Positions 28 to 14,508 of a DNA stretch of 14,508 bases are shown piece after piece (position 1 is the first letter of the stretch; every line of letters begins with the position of its first letter). The notes beneath the pieces were generated by a model. That model was not told where the DNA came from. It saw only the letters and a list, made by a program, of their open reading frames with translations, and did no database searches. Origin of the DNA: a virus; the UHGV virus genome UHGV-0180765, one strand, 5' to 3'. Position numbers and translations under genes: made by a program.

Positions 28-585
28 CTATACGATGCATGGATTACTCCGGATACCGCCAATCACCAGCCTGCCGTGCGGGTCGTCGTAAGCCAGTGCC
101 TGCTGCTGACCGAGTATTTTGTTGATTACCTCAATCACCGTTTCACCGTGATCAGGCTGAACATCAGGAATAACACCCGACGGCGCACCGCTGTTCACCA
201 CCTCAATGCCGAAAGGCGCAGCAAGCGCCTGCGCAATCTGCACCAGCGAGCGTCCGTTAAACTGTGTCGGTTCGGCTGCACAGTCAATCAGGTCAGCCGT
301 CAGACTACGTCCGGCAATACCGGTGCTGACCGAACGGGAATCGTAACGAACGGGCGTCGCCTCCACCCAGCCGGTGATCACCAGCTCATCACCAATCAGC
401 ACTTCCACTTTTGAACCGTTTTTAATGCGCGGCTGAAGCGTGGTGATACCCTCATCTCCCGGCCACTGGCGGGTGATCTCCACACTGAAATCCCGCGCCA
501 GCCGTTCAATACCGGCACCGATGCGCACCGATGTCCAGCCATTCCACTCCCGGCCATTTACCCGTAGCGTGACATTGTCGTTCAT
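28..585 (-). CDS. putative phage tail/baseplate protein (possibly a short or truncated Mu P / P2 gpD-like hub); assignment weak
   Basis: 185-aa ORF whose ATG (583-585) overlaps the stop of the upstream 507-aa ORF (ATGA coupling). Composition and gene order suggest a tail-module protein. It ends at a stop 27 nt from the window edge, much shorter than hub proteins of this family, so it may be frameshifted or truncated. No alignment was possible. Confidence 0.3.
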   Translation of the reverse strand: MNDNVTLRVNGREWNGWTSVRIGAGIERLARDFSVEITRQWPGDEGITTLQPRIKNGSKVEVLIGDELVITGWVEATPVRYDSRSVSTGIAGRSLTADLIDCAAEPTQFNGRSLVQIAQALAAPFGIEVVNSGAPSGVIPDVQPDHGETVIEVINKILGQQQALAYDDPHGRLVIGGIRSNPCIV

Positions 586-2105
586 TGCACTGGCACCTTC
601 AGAGGGATCACCGGCACAAAGCCGGGATGCGTAATGGCATTACGCCGGATAATGTCCGCGTCACGCGCCGCGTTATCAAACCAGGTCGCCGCCAGCACCA
701 GCGCGGGTAAAACCTCATCCGGTGTGCGCTGAATGATCCGTGCAGACTGTTCAAGGCGCGTGTTGATATCCGCATTCAGATCTGCTTTCACCCGGCGCAG
801 CGCCAGAAACAGCGCATCGCTGGTTGTACGGGACAACTCCTTATCAATTGCCGTATTCAGTGTGTCGCGAATGTCAGTCAGTTCTTCCCACGTCGGCAGG
901 TCAACCGTGTTTTTCACCGCCGGTGCATTGTTCAGTGCCGGATGCGTGACGGAAGGCCAGCCAGTGCTCTGCGCGGGTGTTGTTGCCTGCCCCACTGCGG
1001 AATTCTGCATCACCGCGGAAGTTGTTGGCGCAGGCAATCGGGTGACGGCATACGCCGCTTCGCTGATTGCGGTCGTACGAAGGGTGCTGGCAACCACGTT
1101 ACGCTGCTGCGTCGCCGTGGCGGTGGTTTTACTGTCCGTTTTCCAGACGCCGCGCGGTTGCAGATCGCTGCCGAGGCTGACACCGGAAAGCGTTTTGATC
1201 ATGGTGACCAGGTCGCTGGCGTTACCATAAAGGCGTTTCCCGGTACGCCACATTTTCTGCACCTGCTCAACGAAATTTTTGCCTGACGATGGCGGCGGCA
1301 GAAGTACCGAGATATCCCCCTGCAACAGCCTGGCGGCATCCGATACGGCAGAATCCACCACTTTCATCGCATCAGAAACATACCCAAGCATTGTGCTGGC
1401 ATTACCGATAACGTCGTTCTGCACGAAATCCGCCACACCATCGATACTGAAACCGCTGAAGCTGTCACTGATGCGGTCATCCAGTGCAGAACAGGATGAC
1501 ATCAGCGTCTGCGCCGTCGCCGCACCTGATGTGGGGTAAGAGAGTTCTCCTGCTTCGACAAACTTCAGGTCAAAGCGGACAATACGCCCTTCACTTTTCG
1601 ATGTGCTGACCCGAACTTCCCCGTCAACACAGACTTTCAGCTCACCATATGTCGGGTGGACAAGCGTGCCGGGACCGGGTTTATTCAGCGCTTCAATCAG
1701 GCGATCGCGCTGGTCAAAGCAGTCATCTCCCACCACATAAGCTGTGATGGACGGGCGGAAAGTGACTTTTCCCAGATCTTCGGTATGGCGTAACGACTGG
1801 ATAGTGGTGATATCACCGGTTACGACATCAACCAGGTCTTTGGTTTCATAACCGAGATATGTGTGTTTGAGAGCATCTTTTACCCAAGCTGGAGTGGCGA
1901 ACGTTTTACCCCTGCTGATGAGGTATTCACTGATTTCGCTGTACCACATGTGGCTGAGTGCATTCTGGGAAAGACTGCGTCTCTCGCGCCACGGTTTAAG
2001 CACCATGCGAAAGCATTTGCCGTCCTCCAGATAAGGCTGGATCTGCCGACCGATAGCGGTGAAGTTACCGCGATGCAATTTGATACCATCTTGTGGGAGG
2101 TTCAC
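582..2105 (-). CDS. putative Mu gp N-like DNA circulation / tail assembly protein
   Basis: 507-aa ORF with GTG start at 2105 preceded by GGAGGTG (RBS); Ser/Thr/Ala-rich central region; translationally coupled to the downstream 185-aa ORF. Size and gene order resemble the Mu N-P pair found in Mu-like tail modules of SfV-type phages. Family call is from memory and synteny only. Confidence 0.4.
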
Positions 2106-2380
2106 GCTTCACCTCCGCAGAGGTCAAACGTTGGATGCAAGATATCGCAGGTGCATTTCTGCATCTGTGACTGGTTGAAAGGTGTTCTGATTGTCGTTTG
2201 CACTTTGAGTCCCCTCAAAGCGCAGAAGTCACCGGAGTTGTTCAGGCTCCGATGACATGATTATGGCGAGTTGATTATGATGAATCAATAGGTTCTTATG
2301 TCAAATGGACACTAGATCCAAAGGAGGGTAACAATTATCATAGCCAATGAGATTAATCTCATTTTTAATAAGGAAATTTC

Positions 2381-3799
2381 ATGAAATATTTCTCAACTGG
2401 TTTTTATGTTTCAAACTCCACATCTCTAGCTGAGATCTTTAATGAATGTTTTTCTTGGGTAAACGACTCACCACATACAACTTTTATTCCAGCACAATTA
2501 GTATGTGATTATAAAAGCGAGGAGTACTTCATAGAGTCTAAAAATGAAAGAATTGATATAATAACTTATAAAAACAAAGATACTAGTTTAGGCTGTTTTA
2601 GGTATTCGAAAATATCTGAGCCACACAAATGGGTAACAGATATTTCAATTAATAAAAATCTCAAAACTGATACCATGTGGATTCAGGTGGAATCTAGCGT
2701 TGTAAGCCAAGATGCAGCTTATCTAGCCCCGCAACCTAAGAAACCATTAGTTGTTATGAGATTGATTGATAAATTTCCTGGTGGTCTTGATGATATTTTC
2801 AAGGTGTCAGTCGAACCTCATTCCTTAGATGATACTGATGAACATTTAAATATAGCAGCTAAAGTTATAAATGGTGAAACTGACAACAGACTACCAATAA
2901 TATACGTTAGCTCCAAGTATTTTTTTAATGAACATGCTCACAATATCATCCCAGAACGCCTTGCAAGAAAGGTATGCGGATTAGCACATGTATTAATTGA
3001 GCCTAGCAATAGACTATTTTCTATTAAGCTAAAAAATGAGACAAATGCTAAAAATGCCTATGCTGGTGCTGTTGGTATCTATTGGCCACGGGGTCAAAAT
3101 ATCAGTTTTTATCGCCGTGGTGAGAAAACCGCAAAAGAATTTGAAGATGAGTTATTTGATGATGTTGTAAGAGCTACGACTACAATGGCTCCTGTCTCAG
3201 ATAGTGGATGGAGTGAGATACAAACCAGAAAAACGAAAGACTCTATTAACTCACTCAAAGAAAGAGGAGAATACACACGCGAACTGATGGCGCTTTACGA
3301 AGCCGATAATGTTGCGAAAGATGACCAAATAGAAGATCTTAAGCATAAGATCTCCTCTTTAGAGCACAGAGTACGCACTCTTCAATCACAAGCTTCAGCC
3401 CAAGGAAGCATTGCGCTTAATGCTGGTGAAGAGACTGACTTTTTTGATGGAGAAATCAAAAATATAATTATTGACGCACTAAAAACTGCCATAAAAAATA
3501 AAAATGAATTTGGTAGAAGCTACCATATCTTATCATCCCTAATTGCCAATAATGAATACAATAAAGAAACCGAGAGTCGCCGCCAATTACTTAAAAGGAC
3601 TTTAACAGGTTACAGAAGCATGGATAGCGCAACACAAAGAAATTTAAAGGACTTAGGTTTCAGTGCGTCAAGCGATGGAAAACACTGGAAGTTAACATAT
3701 AATGAAGACCCTCGATATTCCTATATTTTACCTAAAACAGGAAGTGACCACAGAGGTTCTTTAAATGCTATCTCGGATATAGCAAATATTATTTTCTAA
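2381..3799 (+). CDS. hypothetical protein, low-GC orphan gene (function unknown; candidate accessory/defence cargo)
   Basis: 472-aa ORF with AAGGAAA RBS 4-5 nt before ATG 2381. Strongly AT-rich relative to the flanking lambda-like genes (by eye, not computed). Opposite strand to both flanking operons. Predicted coiled-coil segment in the middle (LKHKISSLEHRVRTLQSQ). No family recognised. Confidence 0.7.
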   Translation: MKYFSTGFYVSNSTSLAEIFNECFSWVNDSPHTTFIPAQLVCDYKSEEYFIESKNERIDIITYKNKDTSLGCFRYSKISEPHKWVTDISINKNLKTDTMWIQVESSVVSQDAAYLAPQPKKPLVVMRLIDKFPGGLDDIFKVSVEPHSLDDTDEHLNIAAKVINGETDNRLPIIYVSSKYFFNEHAHNIIPERLARKVCGLAHVLIEPSNRLFSIKLKNETNAKNAYAGAVGIYWPRGQNISFYRRGEKTAKEFEDELFDDVVRATTTMAPVSDSGWSEIQTRKTKDSINSLKERGEYTRELMALYEADNVAKDDQIEDLKHKISSLEHRVRTLQSQASAQGSIALNAGEETDFFDGEIKNIIIDALKTAIKNKNEFGRSYHILSSLIANNEYNKETESRRQLLKRTLTGYRSMDSATQRNLKDLGFSASSDGKHWKLTYNEDPRYSYILPKTGSDHRGSLNAISDIANIIF

Positions 3800-4457: not shown

Positions 4458-5155
4458 ACACTTGCTCCTTTCAGCCCAAACTTCGCTTTGATTTCTGCGA
4501 TCTTCGCCAGAGACTGAACACGATTAAGCGGTCTCCCGCCCATAACAGGAAGTTGTTTTACTGGTTCCGGTATCGCCTCACCACGGTTAATTCGCGCTGT
4601 CATACAGGCCAGTTCATCGGCAGCCTTGCGCCGTAATTCCGCATCAGTCAGCGCATTGGCCCGCATGTTCTGATACAGGTTGGTAACCAGCCAGTAGTGC
4701 GCGTTTGATTTCCACGGATAAGACTCTGCATCCGGATACAGGCCACGTTTCCGGCAATACTCGTAAACCATATCAACCAGCTCGCTGGCGTTTGGCAGCC
4801 CGGCGGTAACGGATGCTTCTTCCCGGCACCAGGCAACAAACTGCCCGGGTGATGGCAGGAATGGTCGATTCTGCCGACGGGCTACGCGCATTCCTGCGTT
4901 AACCTGTTCCATCGTGGTGATCCCGTTTTCCCGGAAAGCCAGAACCCACTGGCGGCGGATTTCGTTCAGTTCGTTCTGGTCCCGGTTAGCCAGGCTCGCC
5001 GGGAAAGTTGCCAGTAACTGGCTGAACACACCATTGATGATCTGCGCTACCTGTTGTACCTGCGGCTTTTCGTCGTACTGTTCCGGCATGTTGTTGGCGA
5101 TCCGGCGCATCTGCTCACGGTCAAAGTTAACCATCTGTGCGGCGATGTTTTTCAT
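4454..5155 (-). CDS. P: replication protein P (DnaB helicase loader)
   Basis: 233-aa product MKNIAAQMVNFDREQMRRIANNMPEQYDEKPQVQQVAQIINGVF... matches lambda P as recalled, at the same length. Its start overlaps the O stop (ATGA). Confidence 0.9.
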   Translation of the reverse strand: MKNIAAQMVNFDREQMRRIANNMPEQYDEKPQVQQVAQIINGVFSQLLATFPASLANRDQNELNEIRRQWVLAFRENGITTMEQVNAGMRVARRQNRPFLPSPGQFVAWCREEASVTAGLPNASELVDMVYEYCRKRGLYPDAESYPWKSNAHYWLVTNLYQNMRANALTDAELRRKAADELACMTARINRGEAIPEPVKQLPVMGGRPLNRVQSLAKIAEIKAKFGLKGASV

Positions 5156-6081
5156 AAATCCACCCCGTAAATCCAGTCAGTGTTTGTCAGGTCGAGTTTT
5201 GATTTTCCGGCTGTCACGCCAGCCTGTTGCTTGTTACGGTTGATTTCGAGTTGGGTCCACTTGTCGCGGAGTTTGGCCGGACTTAGCACGTTACCGGACC
5301 AGAAGTTGTCCTGGCATGCCCAGCGGAACAGCACGCACATGTCGCGGTGGTTACGGCCGTCACGTTCACGCATCAGGCGGATATCGTTAGCCCACCCTGC
5401 AAAATTCGGTTTTCTGGCTGATGGCGCGATGGTCTTCACCATGTCAAACATCCACTCTGCGGCGGTCAGGTCTTCTGCTGTCCCCCACTTGCTGCCACTC
5501 TGAATTGCAGCATCCGGTTTAACCACAGGAAGATCGTCTTCTGGTTGGTCAGAGGATTCGCCAGAATTCTCGGACGAAAAAGGTTTTATATTGTCTTTTG
5601 TTAGTTTGTCTTTTGTGTTTACCTGATTCGGGTAAACGCCTTTACCTGATTTGGGTAAACTTTTCTTACCTGATTCAGGTAAATTTACCTCTTTCAGGTA
5701 AACTTTATTTTTCTTACCTGATTCGGGTAATGTTGACCATTCACTGACCACATTATTAATGCCTATATTCCGCCCGCTCTGAATAAAAATCCCACGCTTT
5801 ACCAGAGCACTTTTTGCAGCAGAACACTTGTGCGGCAATATCCCGGTCAACTCGGAAAGTTGCTCGTTGCTCACCCAATCCAGTTTTTTATTAAAGCCAT
5901 ATGTTTTGCGCATGACAGCCAGGAAGACCAGAAGCTGGTGCTGTGTTAATCCGGCCAGCATTACAGCTTCCAGCAACTCATTTGCAATGCGCGTATAACC
6001 ATCATCGAGATCTGCCACGCGCGGCTCCTTTTGTGCCGCATCCGGCACAGGAAAATTGAATATCTCAGCAGTGTTTGCCAT
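5152..6081 (-). CDS. O: replication initiator O (hybrid: non-lambda N-terminal iteron-binding domain, lambda-like C-terminal P-interaction domain)
   Basis: Start placed at ATG 6079-6081, preceded by GGAGG plus 4 nt; the N-terminus MANTAEIFNF... parallels lambda O MTNTAKILNF.... The C-terminal half (SSENSGESSDQPEDDL...WIYGVDL) matches lambda O as recalled. The ori iterons lie inside the gene. The ORF track's longer start at 6171 is less likely. Confidence 0.85.
   Translation of the reverse strand: MANTAEIFNFPVPDAAQKEPRVADLDDGYTRIANELLEAVMLAGLTQHQLLVFLAVMRKTYGFNKKLDWVSNEQLSELTGILPHKCSAAKSALVKRGIFIQSGRNIGINNVVSEWSTLPESGKKNKVYLKEVNLPESGKKSLPKSGKGVYPNQVNTKDKLTKDNIKPFSSENSGESSDQPEDDLPVVKPDAAIQSGSKWGTAEDLTAAEWMFDMVKTIAPSARKPNFAGWANDIRLMRERDGRNHRDMCVLFRWACQDNFWSGNVLSPAKLRDKWTQLEINRNKQQAGVTAGKSKLDLTNTDWIYGVDL
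5618..5732. repeat. replication origin iterons (five ~19-bp direct repeats) with adjacent T-rich tract
   Basis: Five copies of TTACCTGATTCGGGTAA-like repeats starting near 5618, 5641, 5666, 5685 and 5714, each internally palindromic (TTACC...GGTAA). They are followed at 5591-5617 by a duplicated ttgtcttttg T-rich tract. Located inside the O linker region, as lambda ori is. Confidence 0.75.
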
Positions 6082-6167
6082 AATTCCTCCCGCAATGAGT
6101 GTGTTACGATTTGCACCTGAAAGTCGGTTCTGTTCCCGCAGACCGACTTTCGCCATTTTTGAACCTG

Positions 6168-6707
6168 TCATATTGCCCCCAACATGGTGGTAACCATCGC
6201 CATCAATGGACCAGCCAGATCCGGGTCCACACGAAACATCGACACAATACCTTCACTCATCTCCTTCAGTTTCTGGTGGCGTGGTGCGTTGAGAATGACA
6301 GCCTGTTTTGCCTCACTGAGTTCCTTTTCCATTTCAGCCAACCGAGTCATGAAGCTATCCTGCTCAACCAGGTAACCGCGATATTCCAGCGGTAGTACCG
6401 CCAGAATTGCCGGGGTCAGTTCACGCACGTTATTTCGGTATTTTTCAGAATCGAATTTGTTATCGAGGAAGCGGAACAGCTTCTGGCGTGCACGGCTGAC
6501 ATCATCAGGGAAATCGATGGTGCCGCCGCCCTGCTCCCGATACTCATTCACAATGAGTGCGGCAACAACATCCTGATTATCTGCAGCCGACCAGGCGCGG
6601 ACGGCATCACGGATTTTTTCGTGGCCTGGCACCTGTTTTGTTTGAGAACGATTTATCACCGCAGTCGGGCTAAATCCGCTAGTCTGTTGGTATGTAAGTG
6701 GTTGCAT
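6168..6707 (-). CDS. YdaT-like protein (CII-position regulator)
   Basis: 179-aa ORF with AAGGAG RBS 6 nt before ATG 6707. Lies between the cro-like gene and O, where cII sits in lambda. Motifs EYREQGGG and TPAILAVLPLEYR resemble the Rac prophage YdaT family as I recall it. Family call is from memory. Confidence 0.5.
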   Translation of the reverse strand: MQPLTYQQTSGFSPTAVINRSQTKQVPGHEKIRDAVRAWSAADNQDVVAALIVNEYREQGGGTIDFPDDVSRARQKLFRFLDNKFDSEKYRNNVRELTPAILAVLPLEYRGYLVEQDSFMTRLAEMEKELSEAKQAVILNAPRHQKLKEMSEGIVSMFRVDPDLAGPLMAMVTTMLGAI

Positions 6708-6752
6708 AATTGACTCCTTTAGTTTGAATTGACTGTTAAGTTGATTGCTTAT

Positions 6753-6765
6753 TGTTAAAGAGCGT
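6753..6765 (-). promoter_or_regulatory. boxA-like element (nutR-type) downstream of the cro-like gene
   Basis: The minus strand reads CGCTCTTTAACAA, the boxA consensus, 12 nt after the cro-like stop codon, where nutR sits in lambda. No convincing boxB hairpin was found next to it. Confidence 0.45.
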
Positions 6766-6776
6766 GAAATGGAAAT

Positions 6777-7007
6777 TTAAGCTGCGTTCTTTTCGGTGTG
6801 TGGAAACAACTTCGGAAGATCCGGGCGAATCTGGTATGCCTTCACTACTCCACCAGTAGCCGTAACAATGCTGCCGACATGTTCAGGGGATACCTTTGCT
6901 TTGTTGTGAAGCCACTTATAGACGGCCTGCTGTGAAACTTCGCAGGCAGCGCCCAGTTTCTTTTGTGAACCAACGATATTGATCGCTGTTTTGATAGCTG
7001 GGTTCAT
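6777..7007 (-). CDS. Cro/YdaS-family helix-turn-helix regulator
   Basis: 76-aa ORF with GGAGG RBS 5 nt before ATG 7007; an HTH-like segment (GSQKKLGAACEVSQQAVYKW); divergent from the CI-like repressor gene across an operator region. Confidence 0.6.
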   Translation of the reverse strand: MNPAIKTAINIVGSQKKLGAACEVSQQAVYKWLHNKAKVSPEHVGSIVTATGGVVKAYQIRPDLPKLFPHTEKNAA

Positions 7008-7111
7008 AACAACCTCCGTGGTTAATTCGAATCAAGATTAAAACTATGGTTGTTTTTAGTCAACAACCATTTTCGTTTGATAGAATAAAACCTTGGTTGT
7101 ACATTTGGACT
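7008..7111. promoter_or_regulatory. oR-type operator region with divergent pR (minus) and pRM (plus) promoters
   Basis: Perfect inverted repeat ATGGTTGTT-7nt-AACAACCAT at 7046-7070, plus further TGGTTGT/ACAACCA half-sites at 7008-7014, 7019-7025 (degenerate) and 7094-7100. Candidate pRM: -35 TTGATA 7077-7082, 17-nt spacer, -10 TACATT 7100-7105, placing the transcript start at or next to the cI ATG (leaderless, as for lambda pRM). Candidate pR on the minus strand: -35 TTGACT (plus 7058-7063) and -10 TTTAAT (plus 7037-7042). Confidence 0.6.
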
Positions 7112-7801
7112 ATGAAAACAACACTCTCAGAAAGACTTAAAGAAGCCAGATTAGCGCGAGGCCTTACACAAAAGGCGCTTGGGGATTTGGTCGGGGTTAG
7201 CCAAGCTGCTATTCAGAAAATCGAAACAGGGAAAGCTAACCAAACAACTAAAATCGTGGAGATCGCGAACGCTTTGGGTGTGCGCGCAGAATGGTTATCT
7301 TCTGGCGTTGGAAATATGTCAGACAGTACAGTGCAACCAATACCATCAACTGTCAGCCATTCCAAATACTTTAAGATTGACGTTCTTGATATAGAAGTGA
7401 GTGCCGGGCCGGGAGTCATCAACCGTGAGTTTGTAGAAGTTCTACGCTCGGTTGAGTACTCGTTTGACGATGCTCGTCACATGTTCGATGGTAGGAAGGC
7501 AGAAAATATCCGCATCATTAACGTACGCGGTGACAGCATGTCAGGAACGATCGAACCAGGTGATCTGCTGTTCGTTGATATCACGGTTAAATCTTTCGAC
7601 GGTGATGGCATCTATGCGTTTCTGTACGACGACACCGCCCATGTAAAGCGCCTGCAAATGATGAAGGATAAGCTGCTGGTTATCTCTGATAACAAGAGCT
7701 ACTCACCGTGGGACCCGATCGAGAAAGACGAGATGAACCGGGTGTTTATCTTCGGGAAAGTTATTGGGAGCATGCCGCAAACATATAGGAAGCATGGTTA
7801 G
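7112..7801 (+). CDS. CI-type prophage repressor (XRE HTH + S24 LexA-like autopeptidase domain)
   Basis: 229-aa product from ATG 7112 (MKTTLSERLKEARLARGLTQKALGDLVGVSQAAIQKIE...). N-terminal HTH; C-terminal S24 motifs GDSM (Ser nucleophile) and VKRL (Lys). The upstream extension to 7046 in the ORF track is spurious, as its ATG is part of the operator palindrome. Confidence 0.85.
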   Translation: MKTTLSERLKEARLARGLTQKALGDLVGVSQAAIQKIETGKANQTTKIVEIANALGVRAEWLSSGVGNMSDSTVQPIPSTVSHSKYFKIDVLDIEVSAGPGVINREFVEVLRSVEYSFDDARHMFDGRKAENIRIINVRGDSMSGTIEPGDLLFVDITVKSFDGDGIYAFLYDDTAHVKRLQMMKDKLLVISDNKSYSPWDPIEKDEMNRVFIFGKVIGSMPQTYRKHG

Positions 7802-7872
7802 CTAAAACACAAGATAGACTTACCTACAAACAACCACCAGTTAAAATAAATAAAAATCAAAGAGATAATGTC

Positions 7873-8784
7873 ATGAGCCATCAGTCCGCCCACCAACAAG
7901 AAATGTCTTTATTTCCTGTAAAAGAAGTTGAAGTAAACGGTGTACAAATGGGTGTTCTCAATGATGGAACTCCATTTTTGAGTCTCCGTGGATTATCTAG
8001 GTTATGTGGGGTCGATCACACCACACTTTTACCTCTCACCACCAACTGGTCAATAGAAAAGAATAAACCCAGAGGAAGGAGAATTGCGGAGCTTCTTTCA
8101 GAGAATGGTTTTAAAGGTGATCAATTATATTCCGTTGTCGGCGGAGGCGCATTTGGTGATACACATGCCTATCCAGATGCCGTATGCATGGCAATTCTTG
8201 AATATTATGCTTTCGATGCCACACAGGTTGATAGCACTATAGCCAGGAAAAATTACCGCCTATTAGCACGTCAAACACTTCGAGACTATATATACAAAAG
8301 TGTAGGTATTGACCCGAGAAATCCAATTAGTGGCGCCTGGAAATGTTTTCAAGAGCGAATATTGCTTAATGACAAAATTCCTGCAGGTTTCTTCAGTGTT
8401 TTTAGAGAGATGGTCGATATCACAGTTCCACTTATCAATGCAGGATTTGAGCTTGGCCCAAAAACAGTACCTGATATTAGTGTGGGTGGACGATGGGCAA
8501 TCCACTGGAAGAAAAACAATCTTAGTGAAAAATATGGCGATGTGAAAAAATATCCACATGAATATCCAGATTGGTTTCCTCAAAGTAAAGCAGGAAAAGT
8601 TCCTGCCAATATTTATCCGGAAGAGGCTTTAGGTGAATTTCGCAGATGGCTAAGAGAAGAATACATTCCAAAGGGTTTCAAAGATTATCTTGCTGATAAA
8701 GTTCAGCAGAAAGTAATTGAAAATACTAAGGCTATTGAAGTTTTAGAAAATTTGCAGCGCCCAAATCTCCCTAAGGCTCGTTAA
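7873..8784 (+). CDS. hypothetical protein encoded between repressor and pL (rexAB-equivalent position); function unknown
   Basis: 303-aa ORF, AT-rich relative to cI (by eye), followed by its own intrinsic terminator. The N-terminal ~60 residues (LFPVKEVEVNGVQMGVLNDGTPFLSLRGLSRLCGV) loosely resemble the pattern of Bro-N/ORF6N-type phage DNA-binding domains; this is an impression, not an alignment. C-terminus is Tyr/Trp/Pro-rich. Confidence 0.7.
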   Translation: MSHQSAHQQEMSLFPVKEVEVNGVQMGVLNDGTPFLSLRGLSRLCGVDHTTLLPLTTNWSIEKNKPRGRRIAELLSENGFKGDQLYSVVGGGAFGDTHAYPDAVCMAILEYYAFDATQVDSTIARKNYRLLARQTLRDYIYKSVGIDPRNPISGAWKCFQERILLNDKIPAGFFSVFREMVDITVPLINAGFELGPKTVPDISVGGRWAIHWKKNNLSEKYGDVKKYPHEYPDWFPQSKAGKVPANIYPEEALGEFRRWLREEYIPKGFKDYLADKVQQKVIENTKAIEVLENLQRPNLPKAR

Positions 8785-8791
8785 TTCTCAT

Positions 8792-8818
8792 CCCGGCTGC
8801 CATGCCGGGTTTCTTTTG
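8792..8818 (+). terminator. intrinsic (rho-independent) terminator after the 303-aa gene
   Basis: Stem CCCGGC (8792-8797), loop tgccat, stem GCCGGG (8804-8809), then TTTCTTTTG, beginning 8 nt after the stop codon. Confidence 0.65.
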
Positions 8819-8904: not shown

Positions 8905-8990
8905 TCTTAAATACAACCAGTTATATCTAAAACAACCAACAAAACAACTTTTGTTGTTGACGATAAAACAACTATAGTTTTAAATGAATT
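8905..8990 (+). promoter_or_regulatory. putative oL/pL region
   Basis: The oR half-site recurs here (ACAACCA at 8913-8919 and 8932-8938; palindrome AACAACttttGTTGTT at 8943-8958). Candidate promoter: -35 TTGACG 8957-8962, 17-nt spacer, -10 TTAAAT 8980-8985, directed toward gam/bet/exo. Operator-like repeats overlap the promoter. Confidence 0.45.
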
Positions 8991-9262
8991 CATCGCAACA
9001 ACACAACGATACGGCAATCACCTGATTCACCGTTGCGATGACCGCTTAGATCCGCAGCTTGAATTTCAGCAGGCTCCGGGGAGTGCGAGGGGTGAAGCGG
9101 ACGCGTGAACGTCGGTGTGACCAGCTGAAATCAACTCAACACTTCATACCTCAGTCGCTTCAACGAGGCGGCTTAGTTATGACAACCGGCGGCCATCCAC
9201 CGCCTGAATACGCGCAGAAGTCTCTATATGTTCAGCAGCCCAGCTTACGGGCAGGAGTTTTT

Positions 9263-11309: not shown

Positions 11310-11464
11310 AGCATCCTCGCGATAATATCCGGGTAGGCGCGATCACTTTCATCTACTCCGTTACAAAGCGAGGCTGGGTATTTCCCGGCCTTTCTGTTAT
11401 CAGAAATCCACTGAAAGCACAGCGGCTGGCTGAGGAGATAAATAATAAACGGGAGAGTGTATGA
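11306..11464 (+). CDS. small hypothetical protein (52 aa), translationally coupled between exo and the downstream gene
   Basis: Not in the ORF track (too short). ATG 11306 overlaps the exo stop (ATGA) and its stop overlaps the next gene's ATG (ATGA at 11461-11464). Product [52 protein letters not shown]. Occupies the position of lambda orf60a. Confidence 0.45.
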
Positions 11465-12213
11465 TTCATTTTCACGGTGGTCCAATAACTCCCGATACCT
11501 GTGCGTTGAAAGCCTGGAAAGGCAGACACGCATTCATCAGTTTTGCTAATCCAGCTCAGATTGATCTGGCTTCCGAAGTCACCCAATCATTTGCTCTTGA
11601 TAATGGTGCATTCACATTCTGGACAAAAAACAAGGCCGTAGACTGGAATGAATATTACAGATTTGTTGAACGCTGGGGTAATCACCCTCGTTTCTCATTC
11701 GCGGTTATCCCGGATGTTATCGGCGGAACCAGTGAAGAGAATGACGCCCTGATTGCGGCATGGCCTCACGGTAAATTTATTGGTGCTCCGGTGTGGCACA
11801 TGAACGAACCAGATGAGCGATTTATTCGTCTGTGCCATGAGTTTCCCCGCGTCTGCATCGGCTCGATGGGGGAATACGATGCAAAACGACCGAGAGCGTG
11901 TCGGGCTAAACTACGCGATCTTATACGTCATGTTGTAGATCAGTACGGCTACCCAATCACCAAGATTCATGGGTTACGGATGTTAAATAAAGACATTTTT
12001 ACTCATGTACCGCTTTCGTCTGCAGACAGCACGAACGTCGCAAGAAATATAGGCATCGACAAATCCTGGGTAGGTTCGCCATATGCTCCCGCAAGTAAAG
12101 AAACCCGTACGCAAGTTCTTGTGGAACGCATTGAATCATTCAACAGTGCCAGTTCACTTAATTACAACGCTGAACGGGACGTCTTTACCCCTCAACTGGC
12201 ATTCGAAGTGTGA
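11461..12213 (+). CDS. TGT-superfamily (tRNA-guanine transglycosylase-like) protein; candidate DpdA-like DNA transglycosylase
   Basis: 250-aa ORF with GGGAGAG RBS. Four segments, in the order seen in tRNA-guanine transglycosylases, resemble conserved TGT motifs as I recall them: LDNGAF (cf. TDSGGFQ, catalytic Asp), VIGGTSEEN (cf. VQGGMYENL), CIGSMGE (cf. AIGGLSVGE), ADSTNVARNIG (cf. FDCVMPTRNARNG, second catalytic Asp). No CxCxxC...H zinc cluster visible. Not confirmed by alignment. Confidence 0.6.
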   Translation: MIHFHGGPITPDTCALKAWKGRHAFISFANPAQIDLASEVTQSFALDNGAFTFWTKNKAVDWNEYYRFVERWGNHPRFSFAVIPDVIGGTSEENDALIAAWPHGKFIGAPVWHMNEPDERFIRLCHEFPRVCIGSMGEYDAKRPRACRAKLRDLIRHVVDQYGYPITKIHGLRMLNKDIFTHVPLSSADSTNVARNIGIDKSWVGSPYAPASKETRTQVLVERIESFNSASSLNYNAERDVFTPQLAFEV

Positions 12214-13079: not shown

Positions 13080-13401
13080 GGCCTGTCAGTTTCTCAAGAT
13101 ATCCAGACCTACCGCTACCAACTGGATACGAACAGGCCGCCTACAGGCAACACGCAAAGACCCCACTAAACTAAAATCTCCTTACCTCACAACACGACAA
13201 GCCTGCATTGCGGCGCTTCAGTCTCCGCTGCATACTGTCCAGGTGAGCGCGGGTGATGGCATAACAGAGGAAAGAAAATGTCACTCTTCCGCAGAGGTGA
13301 AATATGGTACGCCAGTTTCACATTGCCGAACGGTAAAAGATTTAAACAGTCTCTTGGAACAAAGGACAAAAGGCAGGCGACAGAGCTCCATGACAAGCTA
13401 A
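13051..13401 (+). CDS. xis: excisionase (P22 Xis type)
   Basis: 116-aa product from ATG 13051 ([38 protein letters not shown]...) resembles P22 Xis as recalled; its 3' part overlaps the int start. Confidence 0.8.
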
Positions 13402-14441
13402 AGGCTGAAGCATGGCGGGTCAGCAAACTTGGTGAAATACCTGATATGACGTTCGAGGAGGCGTGTATCAGGTGGCTCGAAGAGAAAGCACATAAAAAAT
13501 CACTGGACGATGACAAAAGCCGGATCGGATTCTGGCTTCAACATTTCGCAGGAATGCAACTAAGAGACATTACTGAATCAAAAATTTATTCAGCAATGCA
13601 GAAAATGACGAACCGGCGTCATGAGGAAAACTGGAAACTCAGGGCAGAAGCATGCAGAAAAAAAGGGAAACCTGTTCCAGAATACACGCCAAAACCAGCG
13701 TCCGTTGCAACGAAGGCTACGCATCTTTCATTTATAAAGGCCCTACTAAGAGCCGCAGAGCGTGAATGGAAAATGCTGGATAAGGCACCAATTATTAAAG
13801 TGCCTCAACCAAAGAATAAACGGATCCGCTGGCTGGAGCCCCATGAAGCACAAAGGCTGATTGATGAATGTCCGGAGCCATTAAAGTCTGTTGTTGAATT
13901 TGCACTGGCAACAGGCTTAAGACGCTCGAACATCATCAACCTTGAATGGCAACAAATAGATATGCAGCGCCGGGTGGCATGGATAAACCCGGAAGAGAGT
14001 AAATCAAACCGCGCAATCGGCGTTGCGCTGAATGATACTGCATGTCGCGTTTTGAAAAAACAAATCGGGAATCATCACCGTTGGGTATTTGTGTACAAGG
14101 AAAGCTGTACCAAACCAGACGGAACGAAAGCGCCAACAGTAAGGAAGATGCGGTATGACGCAAACACAGCCTGGAAAGCGGCGCTGAGACGGGCTGGTAT
14201 TGATGATTTCAGATTTCACGACTTGAGACACACCTGGGCAAGTTGGCTGGTTCAAGCCGGAGTCCCGTTGTCAGTGTTACAGGAAATGGGAGGCTGGGAG
14301 TCTATCGAAATGGTTCGTCGATATGCTCACCTTGCACCTAATCACCTTACCGAACACGCACGGCAAATAGACTCGATCCTGAACCCATCGGTCCCAAATT
14401 TGTCCCAGTCAAAAAATAAGGAAGGTACTAATGATGTGTAA
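13278..14441 (+). CDS. int: tyrosine integrase (P22 Int type)
   Basis: 387-aa product [47 protein letters not shown]... with tyrosine-recombinase motifs near the C-terminus ([17 protein letters not shown]). Resembles P22 Int as recalled. RBS AGAGGA upstream. Transcribed toward the tRNA 14 nt beyond its stop. Confidence 0.95.
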
Positions 14442-14455
14442 CTTATTGATTTAAA

Positions 14456-14508
14456 TGGTGCCGATAATAGGAGTCGAACCTACGACCTTCGCATTACGAA
14501 TGCGCTGC
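14456..14508 (-). tRNA. thrW: tRNA-Thr (anticodon CGU), 3' 53 nt only; continues beyond the window
   Basis: The reverse complement of the window end reads ...GCGCATTCGTAATGCGAAGGTCGTAGGTTCGACTCCTATTATCGGCACCA: anticodon loop TTCGTAA (anticodon CGT), T-arm GTAGG-TTCGACT-CCTAT, acceptor 3' strand, discriminator A and CCA. The 3' end points toward int, the usual att arrangement. Confidence 0.8.

Follow-up and report, generated by a model that had tools for sequence, protein, structure and literature searches.

A consensus boxA between the Cro- and CII-type genes of a phi80/HK639-like lambdoid prophage: a probable nutR remnant in a lineage without N

Introduction

The rightward early region of UHGV-0180765, a viral DNA of 14,508 nucleotides (nt) that was analysed over its full length (hereafter, the window), raises two questions: whether a pair of genes of the YdaS and YdaT families, lying between the operator oR and the replication gene O, encodes regulators or growth inhibitors, and what a consensus boxA situated between these genes signifies. 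The window is a lambdoid prophage that adjoins the 3' half of a tRNA, and its minus strand corresponds to the 'rightward' direction on the lambda map. An initial annotation, made from the sequence alone, had recognised the gene pair, left its role open and taken the boxA to suggest N-type antitermination of the right operon. Our analyses indicate that the pair corresponds to the Cro and CII of a phi80/HK639-type immunity region. We find no support for antitermination of the N type, and the boxA is probably the surviving half of a nutR site that was inherited together with cro from an N-dependent relative.

Homologues of the pair have been characterized experimentally in two prophages. YdaS and YdaT of CP-933P are analogues of Cro and CII, with YdaT activating a PRE-like promoter between both genes; this YdaT is not toxic and the two genes do not form a toxin-antitoxin system (PMC8630535). 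YdaT is a tetrameric, POU-like helix-turn-helix (HTH) protein with a long C-terminal helix, and its binding site is TTGATT-N6-AATCAA (PMC9986795), here called the YdaT-box. YdaT of the Rac prophage recognises this box at the start codon of its own gene and activates a reverse promoter for racR; it also occupies PydaST and the ydaS start, and the toxicity of its over-expression acts via rcsA (PMC11879457). For the boxA, the suhB gene provides a precedent: there, boxA by itself brings in Nus factors, lowers translation and favours termination by Rho, and repression is still seen with the element placed as far as 100 nt from the Shine-Dalgarno (SD) sequence (PMC5725501). The criterion used in that study is a perfect GYTCTTTAANA at most 50 nt ahead of a start codon, and its genome-wide list of boxA sites already includes one Escherichia coli prophage 'cII' gene (PMC5725501). 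A consensus boxA is also bound more tightly by NusB:NusE than is the boxA of lambda (PMC2800207).

Results

A Cro- and CII-type gene pair

Open reading frames (ORFs) of 76 and 179 amino acids (aa) were found exactly where the initial annotation had placed them, at 6777-7007 and 6168-6707 respectively, both on the minus strand. Starting from the divergent cI, the genes follow in the order cro, ydaT, O, P and ren, with translational coupling, in a pR operon of five genes. The 179-aa gene has an SD sequence, AAGGAG, 7 nt ahead of its ATG, and its stop codon overlaps the start of O (ATGA). Both Pfam and PHROG matches agree with the annotation in assigning the pair to the YdaS and YdaT types and not to lambda Cro and CII.

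The 76-aa product, an all-alpha HTH protein of the YdaS or P22-Cro type, matches the Pfam profile YdaS_toxin (PF15943) with an E-value of 4.1e-17, and P22_Cro (8e-5) and HTH_3 more weakly; phrog_35, 'transcriptional repressor', is matched at 1.5e-27 and 3bd1, the solved structure of a prophage 'Cro protein' in the PDB, at 7e-4. Identity with the Cro proteins of HK639, PA28, SH2026Stx1, UPF_BP1 and phiEt88 lies between 57 and 68%. Its position is that of a Cro, since the gene is the first of its operon, diverges from cI and shares operators with it. By analogy with the Rac and CP-933P homologues, the protein would act as a lytic repressor that competes with cI at oR.

The YdaT-like motifs noted in the 179-aa protein (YdaT family, phi80/HK639 type) were borne out by profile search, which gave a significant match to YdaT_toxin (PF06254; E 4.7e-30, 104 bits against a cut-off of 21). 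The protein also matches phrog_163, 'CII-like transcriptional activator', over residues 17-179 (E 2.4e-67), the CP-933P YdaT structure 8bt1 (E 3.6e-4) and 3c4r (E 7e-4). The recognition-helix motif QK(L/I)FR(F/W)LD is conserved, with ARQKLFRFLD aligned to ARNTQKIFRWLD of the solved YdaT, in which helix alpha3 and R57 have a role in DNA contact (PMC9986795, PMC11879457). As expected of a YdaT, the gene stands between a cro-like gene and replication genes and is divergent from the repressor. Its closest named relatives are the cII products of phi80 (66.7% identity), mEp237 (66.5%), and HK225 and HK639 (52%). The old phi80 record annotates cII too short; the real start, MHSLAYQ..., agrees with HK639 and with the 179-aa protein.

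The same module is found in functional phages. Positions 6100-7801 are 96-98% identical at the DNA level in the temperate phages IdasGreatGrand, PhiR34_1, PhiR47_2, PhiR5_1 and PhiR26_1, five plaque-forming phages whose records annotate cI, Cro and cII or a 'CII-like transcriptional activator'. Among 5426 complete E. coli genomes, 2225 (~41%) had a match to 6100-7900, with 95-100% identity across the copies of the module, and 1515 (~28%) had the junction of cro, boxA and ydaT. The gene pair is thus already known and very common, and in itself adds nothing new. Taken as a whole, the region is very probably the module that controls early rightward transcription in a lambdoid prophage of the phi80/HK639 kind.

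A consensus boxA in the cro-cII spacer

The 69-nt spacer between the two genes (6708-6776, minus strand) contains a single exact match to consensus boxA, CGCTCTTTAACAA. The 13-mer reported by the initial annotation is thus real, although its coordinates were one base off: it occupies 6752-6764 on the minus strand, not 6753-6765. It begins 12 nt past the stop codon of the cro-like gene and ends 44 nt short of the ydaT-like ATG. The core GCTCTTTAACA, at 6753-6763 on the same strand, is a perfect GYTCTTTAANA located 44-45 nt from the ATG at 6707, within the distance from a start codon adopted in the suhB study (PMC5725501). From base composition, the exact 13-mer would be expected 5e-4 times per window, counting both strands, and about 1e-6 times in the 60-nt zone where it lies; the 12-mer of the boxA turned up in one of 200 shuffles.

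With 15 C and 6 G residues, the spacer is the sole stretch of the pR transcript in which C exceeds G. It is unstructured, having a minimum free energy of -4.1 kcal/mol over 91 nt (z -0.2). The GCUCUUU of the boxA can pair with AAAGGAGU, the SD region of the cII-like gene, to which we gave no weight. Conservation of the boxA is uninformative here, all 80 loci from IMG/VR and 1459 of the 1515 genome copies being at least 99% identical. One divergent class of junction copies carries a 12-nt duplication that lies outside the boxA, and a point mutation within the boxA was seen in one of 72 IMG/VR copies.

No N system and no put RNA

A boxA behind cro suggested N-type antitermination, of which boxB, N and nutL are the remaining parts; each was sought in the window and each is absent, as the initial annotation had already found for boxB and N. 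The folding scan of the sequence 3' of the boxA revealed no stable hairpin. The 50 nt from the boxA fold at -0.8 kcal/mol, compared to -11.8 for nutR of PA28 and -6.9 for that of SH2026Stx1, and longer folds around the boxA were no better than those of shuffled sequences (z-scores of -0.2 to -1.1). A second boxA, as nutL would require, was found nowhere in the window at up to two mismatches, the pL leader included. ORFs of the left operon had no N-family match in Pfam or PHROGs, and the pL leader leads directly to kil; nor is N annotated in IdasGreatGrand or in the identical JS01 prophage. One ORF of the pL leader, encoding ...KRTRERR..., was considered as an N-like arginine-rich motif and rejected: it has a TTG start and no family match, and a TAG interrupts the frame in IdasGreatGrand.

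The alternative mode of antitermination, by put RNA of the HK022 type, was searched for with a covariance model built from only three sequences (HK022 putL, HK022 putR and HK639 putL), which recovered its training sequences at 67-96 bits. Nothing above 6.3 bits was returned from the window, IdasGreatGrand or 4A7. An Rfam scan of the whole window (E<=1) yielded only the partial tRNA and two chance matches.

Origin of the boxA

Comparison with known phages points to the source of the element. In PA28 and SH2026Stx1, the Cro proteins of which are 67% and 57% identical to the 76-aa protein, a boxA (CGCTCTTTAACA and CGCTCTTTATCAA respectively) lies 7 nt past the cro stop, with a boxB hairpin behind it; an N gene is annotated in PA28. 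In the Salmonella phage UPF_BP1 (locus L099, ~2740-2805) and the Erwinia phage phiEt88 (L109, ~2745-2810), in which cro is 66-68% identical, an HK022-type putR directly follows cro. Neither boxA nor a putR element occurs after cro in HK639, 4A7 or a Klebsiella phage, and in 4A7 a cII that is 98% identical is preceded by a different cro and a 30-nt spacer without boxA. Homologous cro genes are therefore paired with nutR, putR, boxA alone or nothing, depending on the phage.

At ten loci of other Enterobacteriaceae with divergent ydaT genes (53-72% identical; L015 excluded), no boxA was found upstream of ydaT, and the cro-like gene abuts ydaT. Because these divergent modules lack it, the boxA is no feature of YdaT modules as such. 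Since it holds the same place behind a homologous cro 3' end, the element is likely to be the boxA half of a nutR that came along with cro from an N-dependent relative. The part comprising boxB, tR1 and cII would have been replaced or deleted when cro and its boxA joined a YdaT-type cII. A decayed boxB, sought by aligning the sequence in anchored fashion to PA28 and SH2026Stx1, had weak support (p 0.025 and 0.086); the best alignment hints instead that the spacer and boxB were lost cleanly.

YdaT-boxes and a nin-region promoter

YdaT-box-like sites near the gene pair are imperfect. One, TTGATTGCTTATTGTTAA at 6741-6758 (plus strand), has three mismatches with a perfect TTGATT left half, overlaps the boxA and is a weak candidate that phage 4A7 does not conserve; TTGAYT half-sites occur in the spacer at 6710, 6729 and 6741. 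Another, with two mismatches, lies at 7018-7035 (plus strand), over the start of the pR transcript. CATAAT over the ydaT start codon (6705-6710, plus strand) is a possible part of a PRE-type promoter, with no usable -35 and no conservation in HK639. At coding position +48 of HK639, L012 and L014 there is a further YdaT-box-like site, which was rejected because codon conservation accounts for it; a two-codon gap removes it from the window.

The window does contain a perfect YdaT-box, TTGATTATGATGAATCAA (TTGATT-N6-AATCAA with no mismatches), at 2271-2288 on the minus strand, 4.4 kb from the gene. It forms the -35 element and spacer of a near-consensus promoter in the nin region, TTGATT-17-CATAAT (2260-2288, minus strand), that reads into ylcH'/ninB. 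The half-sites and ATAAT are invariant across six lineages, namely the window, phage 82, phi80, HK639, 4A7 and the DLP12 prophage of E. coli K-12, and N6 differs in each. The DLP12 copy (L113, 1886-1903) is upstream of ylcH-ybcN. Among the phage records checked, similarity extends through the nin promoter only in phages with a YdaT-type cII, phage 82 being represented by a partial record that is not assessable in this respect. The nin-region YdaT-box does not appear in the study of Rac YdaT (PMC11879457). From this pattern of sequence conservation, YdaT-type CII proteins, including Rac YdaT of K-12, may control the nin/Q-region promoter; an equally valid reading is that a regulator encoded within the nin operon uses the box as its operator.

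Promoters, operators and replication origin

Between the divergent cI and cro, the promoter pR (TTGACT-17-TAATCT, running from 7063 to 7035) was read from the sequence at 7035-7070 on the minus strand. The pR/oR region holds a 9-bp inverted-repeat operator, ATGGTTGTT-N7-AACAACCAT, at 7046-7070 (inverted repeat I2), and a direct repeat, D1. A pRM-like promoter, TTGATA-17-TACATT, is present at 7077-7105 on the plus strand. The cI repressor (7112-7801, plus strand) has an HTH and an S24 peptidase domain (Peptidase_S24, 1e-18; HTH_3, 5e-13) and is probably leaderless, its start being the RefSeq start of the identical JS01 copy. Downstream of the CII-type gene in the pR operon, the replication gene O (5152-6171, minus strand; Pfam Phage_rep_O, 5.9e-34) includes five palindromic iterons of ~20 nt, TTTACCTGATTCGGGTAAAC, at 5618-5732, which are the replication origin; a weak Rfam match to 'rliD' over these iterons was judged spurious.

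In the left operon, pL (TTGACG-17-TTAAAT, 8957-8985, plus strand) is followed by a leader of ~190 nt (8993-9178, plus strand) and then by kil (9179/9263-9469). The leader is conserved from about +1 between the heteroimmune 4A7 and IdasGreatGrand types, the promoters and operators of which differ. It contains no conserved ORF, N, boxA or HK022-type put, and only its last ~60 nt are common to HK225 and phi80; the leader could have an unrecognised leader RNA function.

Other genes and state of the prophage

Directly downstream of cI, in the rex position, is a 303-aa gene for the abortive infection protein BstA (7873-8784, plus strand; PADLOC, E 7e-122; phrog_6287, E 7.5e-141), which has its own intrinsic terminator at 8792-8809. 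A 472-aa gene (2381-3799, plus strand) is inserted in antisense orientation between ren and the leader of ninB; no Pfam family matches it, its similarity to the PADLOC candidate HEC-07 is weak (E 1e-9), and it is probably a defence or moron gene. The ORF at 582-2105 (minus strand) fuses NinB (residues 1-116) in frame to a Mu-like baseplate-hub/DNA-circularisation protein (residues 107-507). The fusion implies that a deletion took out the remainder of nin together with Q and the lysis and head genes, and the prophage is therefore defective. A 250-aa left-operon protein (11461-12213, plus strand) matches phrog_887, 'queuine tRNA-ribosyltransferase' (E 4e-99), and may be a DpdA-like DNA-modification gene product. 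The 3' half of the tRNA (14459-14508, minus strand; Rfam, 33 bits) is cut by the end of the window and abuts the integrase gene (13278-14441, plus strand). With its anticodon loop read as CGU it would be a thrW-like tRNA-Thr, ARAGORN making no call on the truncated gene.

Discussion

The immunity regions of phi80 and HK639 offer the closest parallels to the module, sharing its gene order and protein families, with cro (or 'gene 30') followed by a 181-aa cII; the Cro of HK639 is 62% identical and HK639 likewise lacks N. HK639 differs in that a putL-like antiterminator RNA is annotated behind its pL and no boxA follows cro, and phi80 in its annotated N gene, whereas the element in the window has neither put nor N and retains the boxA. 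The CP-933P and Rac pairs (8bt1, 3c4r) belong to the same Pfam families and likewise lie between the repressor and the replication genes; by comparison, the 179-aa protein is ~40 aa longer, with ~30% identity, and has no intact canonical box beside its gene. Cro, CII and PRE of lambda are comparable in that the early pR genes encode a lytic repressor and then an activator for the establishment of lysogeny. The protein families are different, however, and the window has no TTGC-N6-TTGC site, no left-operon cIII, and neither tR1 nor nutR between the genes. Shiga toxin (Stx) phages of the 933W type, PA28 and SH2026Stx1, share a homologous cro (57-67%) with a consensus boxA 7-12 nt behind it, but have a boxB hairpin 6-11 nt past the boxA, while boxB, N and nutL are missing here. 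The boxA-only sites of the rrn leader and suhB resemble the window in their perfect GYTCTTTAANA, pyrimidine-rich and G-poor context and distance of less than 50 nt to a start codon; they differ in that the present boxA is inside a polycistronic phage mRNA, behind a translated gene.

The idea that the two genes form a toxin-antitoxin or growth-inhibitor pair draws on the Pfam names 'YdaS_toxin' and 'YdaT_toxin', and on the toxicity of Rac YdaS and YdaT when over-expressed (PMC5700377, PMC5700373, PMC11879457). We consider it highly improbable: the pair takes the place of cro and cII in an immunity region, flanked by an S24 repressor of the cI type and by O, it is carried by viable temperate phages within the five-gene pR operon, and PADLOC finds no match for it. 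Moreover, the CP-933P pair was shown not to be a toxin-antitoxin system (PMC8630535), and in Rac the toxicity is indirect, through rcsA (PMC11879457). Because of the experiments on the CP-933P and Rac proteins, the choice between regulator and inhibitor can be regarded as largely answered in favour of Cro and CII, and the initial annotation overstated the matter in leaving it open, given the literature on homologues (PMC8630535, PMC9986795, PMC11879457). If the 179-aa protein behaves as its homologues do, it would be a tetrameric HTH activator that, soon after infection or derepression, binds TTGATT-like repeats and turns on a leftward PRE-type promoter, giving a transcript antisense across cro into cI; toxicity would be a by-product of over-expression and not its function. 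Several observations weigh against this account and against the remnant origin of the boxA. Identity between the 179-aa protein and the biochemically studied YdaT proteins is only ~30%, and a single-sequence AlphaFold2 model, although all-alpha, was too poor to use (predicted local distance difference test score of 39.8). Neither a PRE-type promoter nor a CII operator was located, the boxes near the genes having two or three mismatches, and the TTGAYT cluster of the spacer is absent in 4A7, despite a 98% identical cII. The remnant origin rests on synteny with cro genes of 57-67% identity, and sequence similarity beyond the boxA is weak (p about 0.025-0.09). Lastly, the boxA is flawless at 13 of 13 positions and lies 44 nt ahead of a start codon, in a spacer that is poor in G and unstructured; this is the kind of context in which the suhB site works (PMC5725501) and sits uneasily with a relic.

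Three other explanations of the boxA may be set beside its origin in a former nutR. Apart from the AT-rich context, nothing favours a chance match, and its probability is negligible given an expectation of 5e-4 per window and 1e-6 in the zone, the single 12-mer in 200 shuffles, and the presence of boxA at the equivalent place behind homologous cro genes. That the boxA marks an operating nutR of the lambda type, with the right operon under N control, is suggested by its sequence and by its location directly behind cro; this too is very unlikely, for the window has no hairpin downstream, no other boxA within two mismatches and no N-like family in the left operon, and the arginine-rich leader frame is stopped in IdasGreatGrand, a functional phage in which, as in JS01, no N is annotated. 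Since the phage is without N, boxB and nutL, the boxA is not part of an N system. The third explanation is an N-independent Nus-factor site on the pR transcript, occupied by NusB-NusE with NusA, NusG and SuhB, which would either inhibit translation of the cII-like gene and favour termination by Rho, as in suhB, or produce a Rho-resistant polymerase, as in rrn. Its attractions are the perfect functional consensus 44 nt from the start codon, the retention of an exact 13-mer although boxB is gone, the unstructured spacer, which as the sole C-over-G stretch of the transcript resembles a rut site, and the presence of the junction in 1515 of 5426 genomes and in active phages. However, the 4A7 group, with 98% identical cII, O and P and the same pL leader, has a 30-nt spacer without boxA; because this group, HK639 and the more distant ydaT modules all do without it, the boxA is dispensable for this type of phage. 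Furthermore, copies are at least 99% identical, so conservation cannot speak for function, and one of the 72 IMG/VR copies has a mutated boxA. An active Nus-factor site is consequently a tentative proposal that we think possible but doubtful. NusB-NusE should bind to an E. coli transcript that carries a consensus boxA, and, judging from sequence context, we put the odds that this measurably affects cII translation or Rho termination without N at somewhat less than even. The joint reading, in which a working Nus-factor boxA in an N-less lineage is combined with control of the nin/Q promoter by a YdaT-type CII, appears unlikely to hold as a whole.

Having weighed these alternatives, we favour the origin of the boxA as the stranded half of a nutR. 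The module also bears on the annotation and biology of lambdoid phages. The database names 'toxin YdaT' and 'YdaS_toxin' mislabel a lysis-lysogeny switch that over a quarter of the complete E. coli genomes carry, and a boxA behind cro should not be counted as evidence of an N system. If YdaT-type CII proteins do act in the nin region, this would be a functional counterpart of the action of lambda CII at paQ, and the YdaT-box of the nin promoter an unrecognised second target. A boxA stranded in a phage without N is a natural experiment on the effects of Nus factors on mRNA in the absence of N; if it proves active, it would govern cII translation and Rho-dependent polarity over O and P, or give rrn-like Rho resistance, and the decision between lysis and lysogeny would be tied to the availability of host Nus factors or to the state of ribosome biogenesis.

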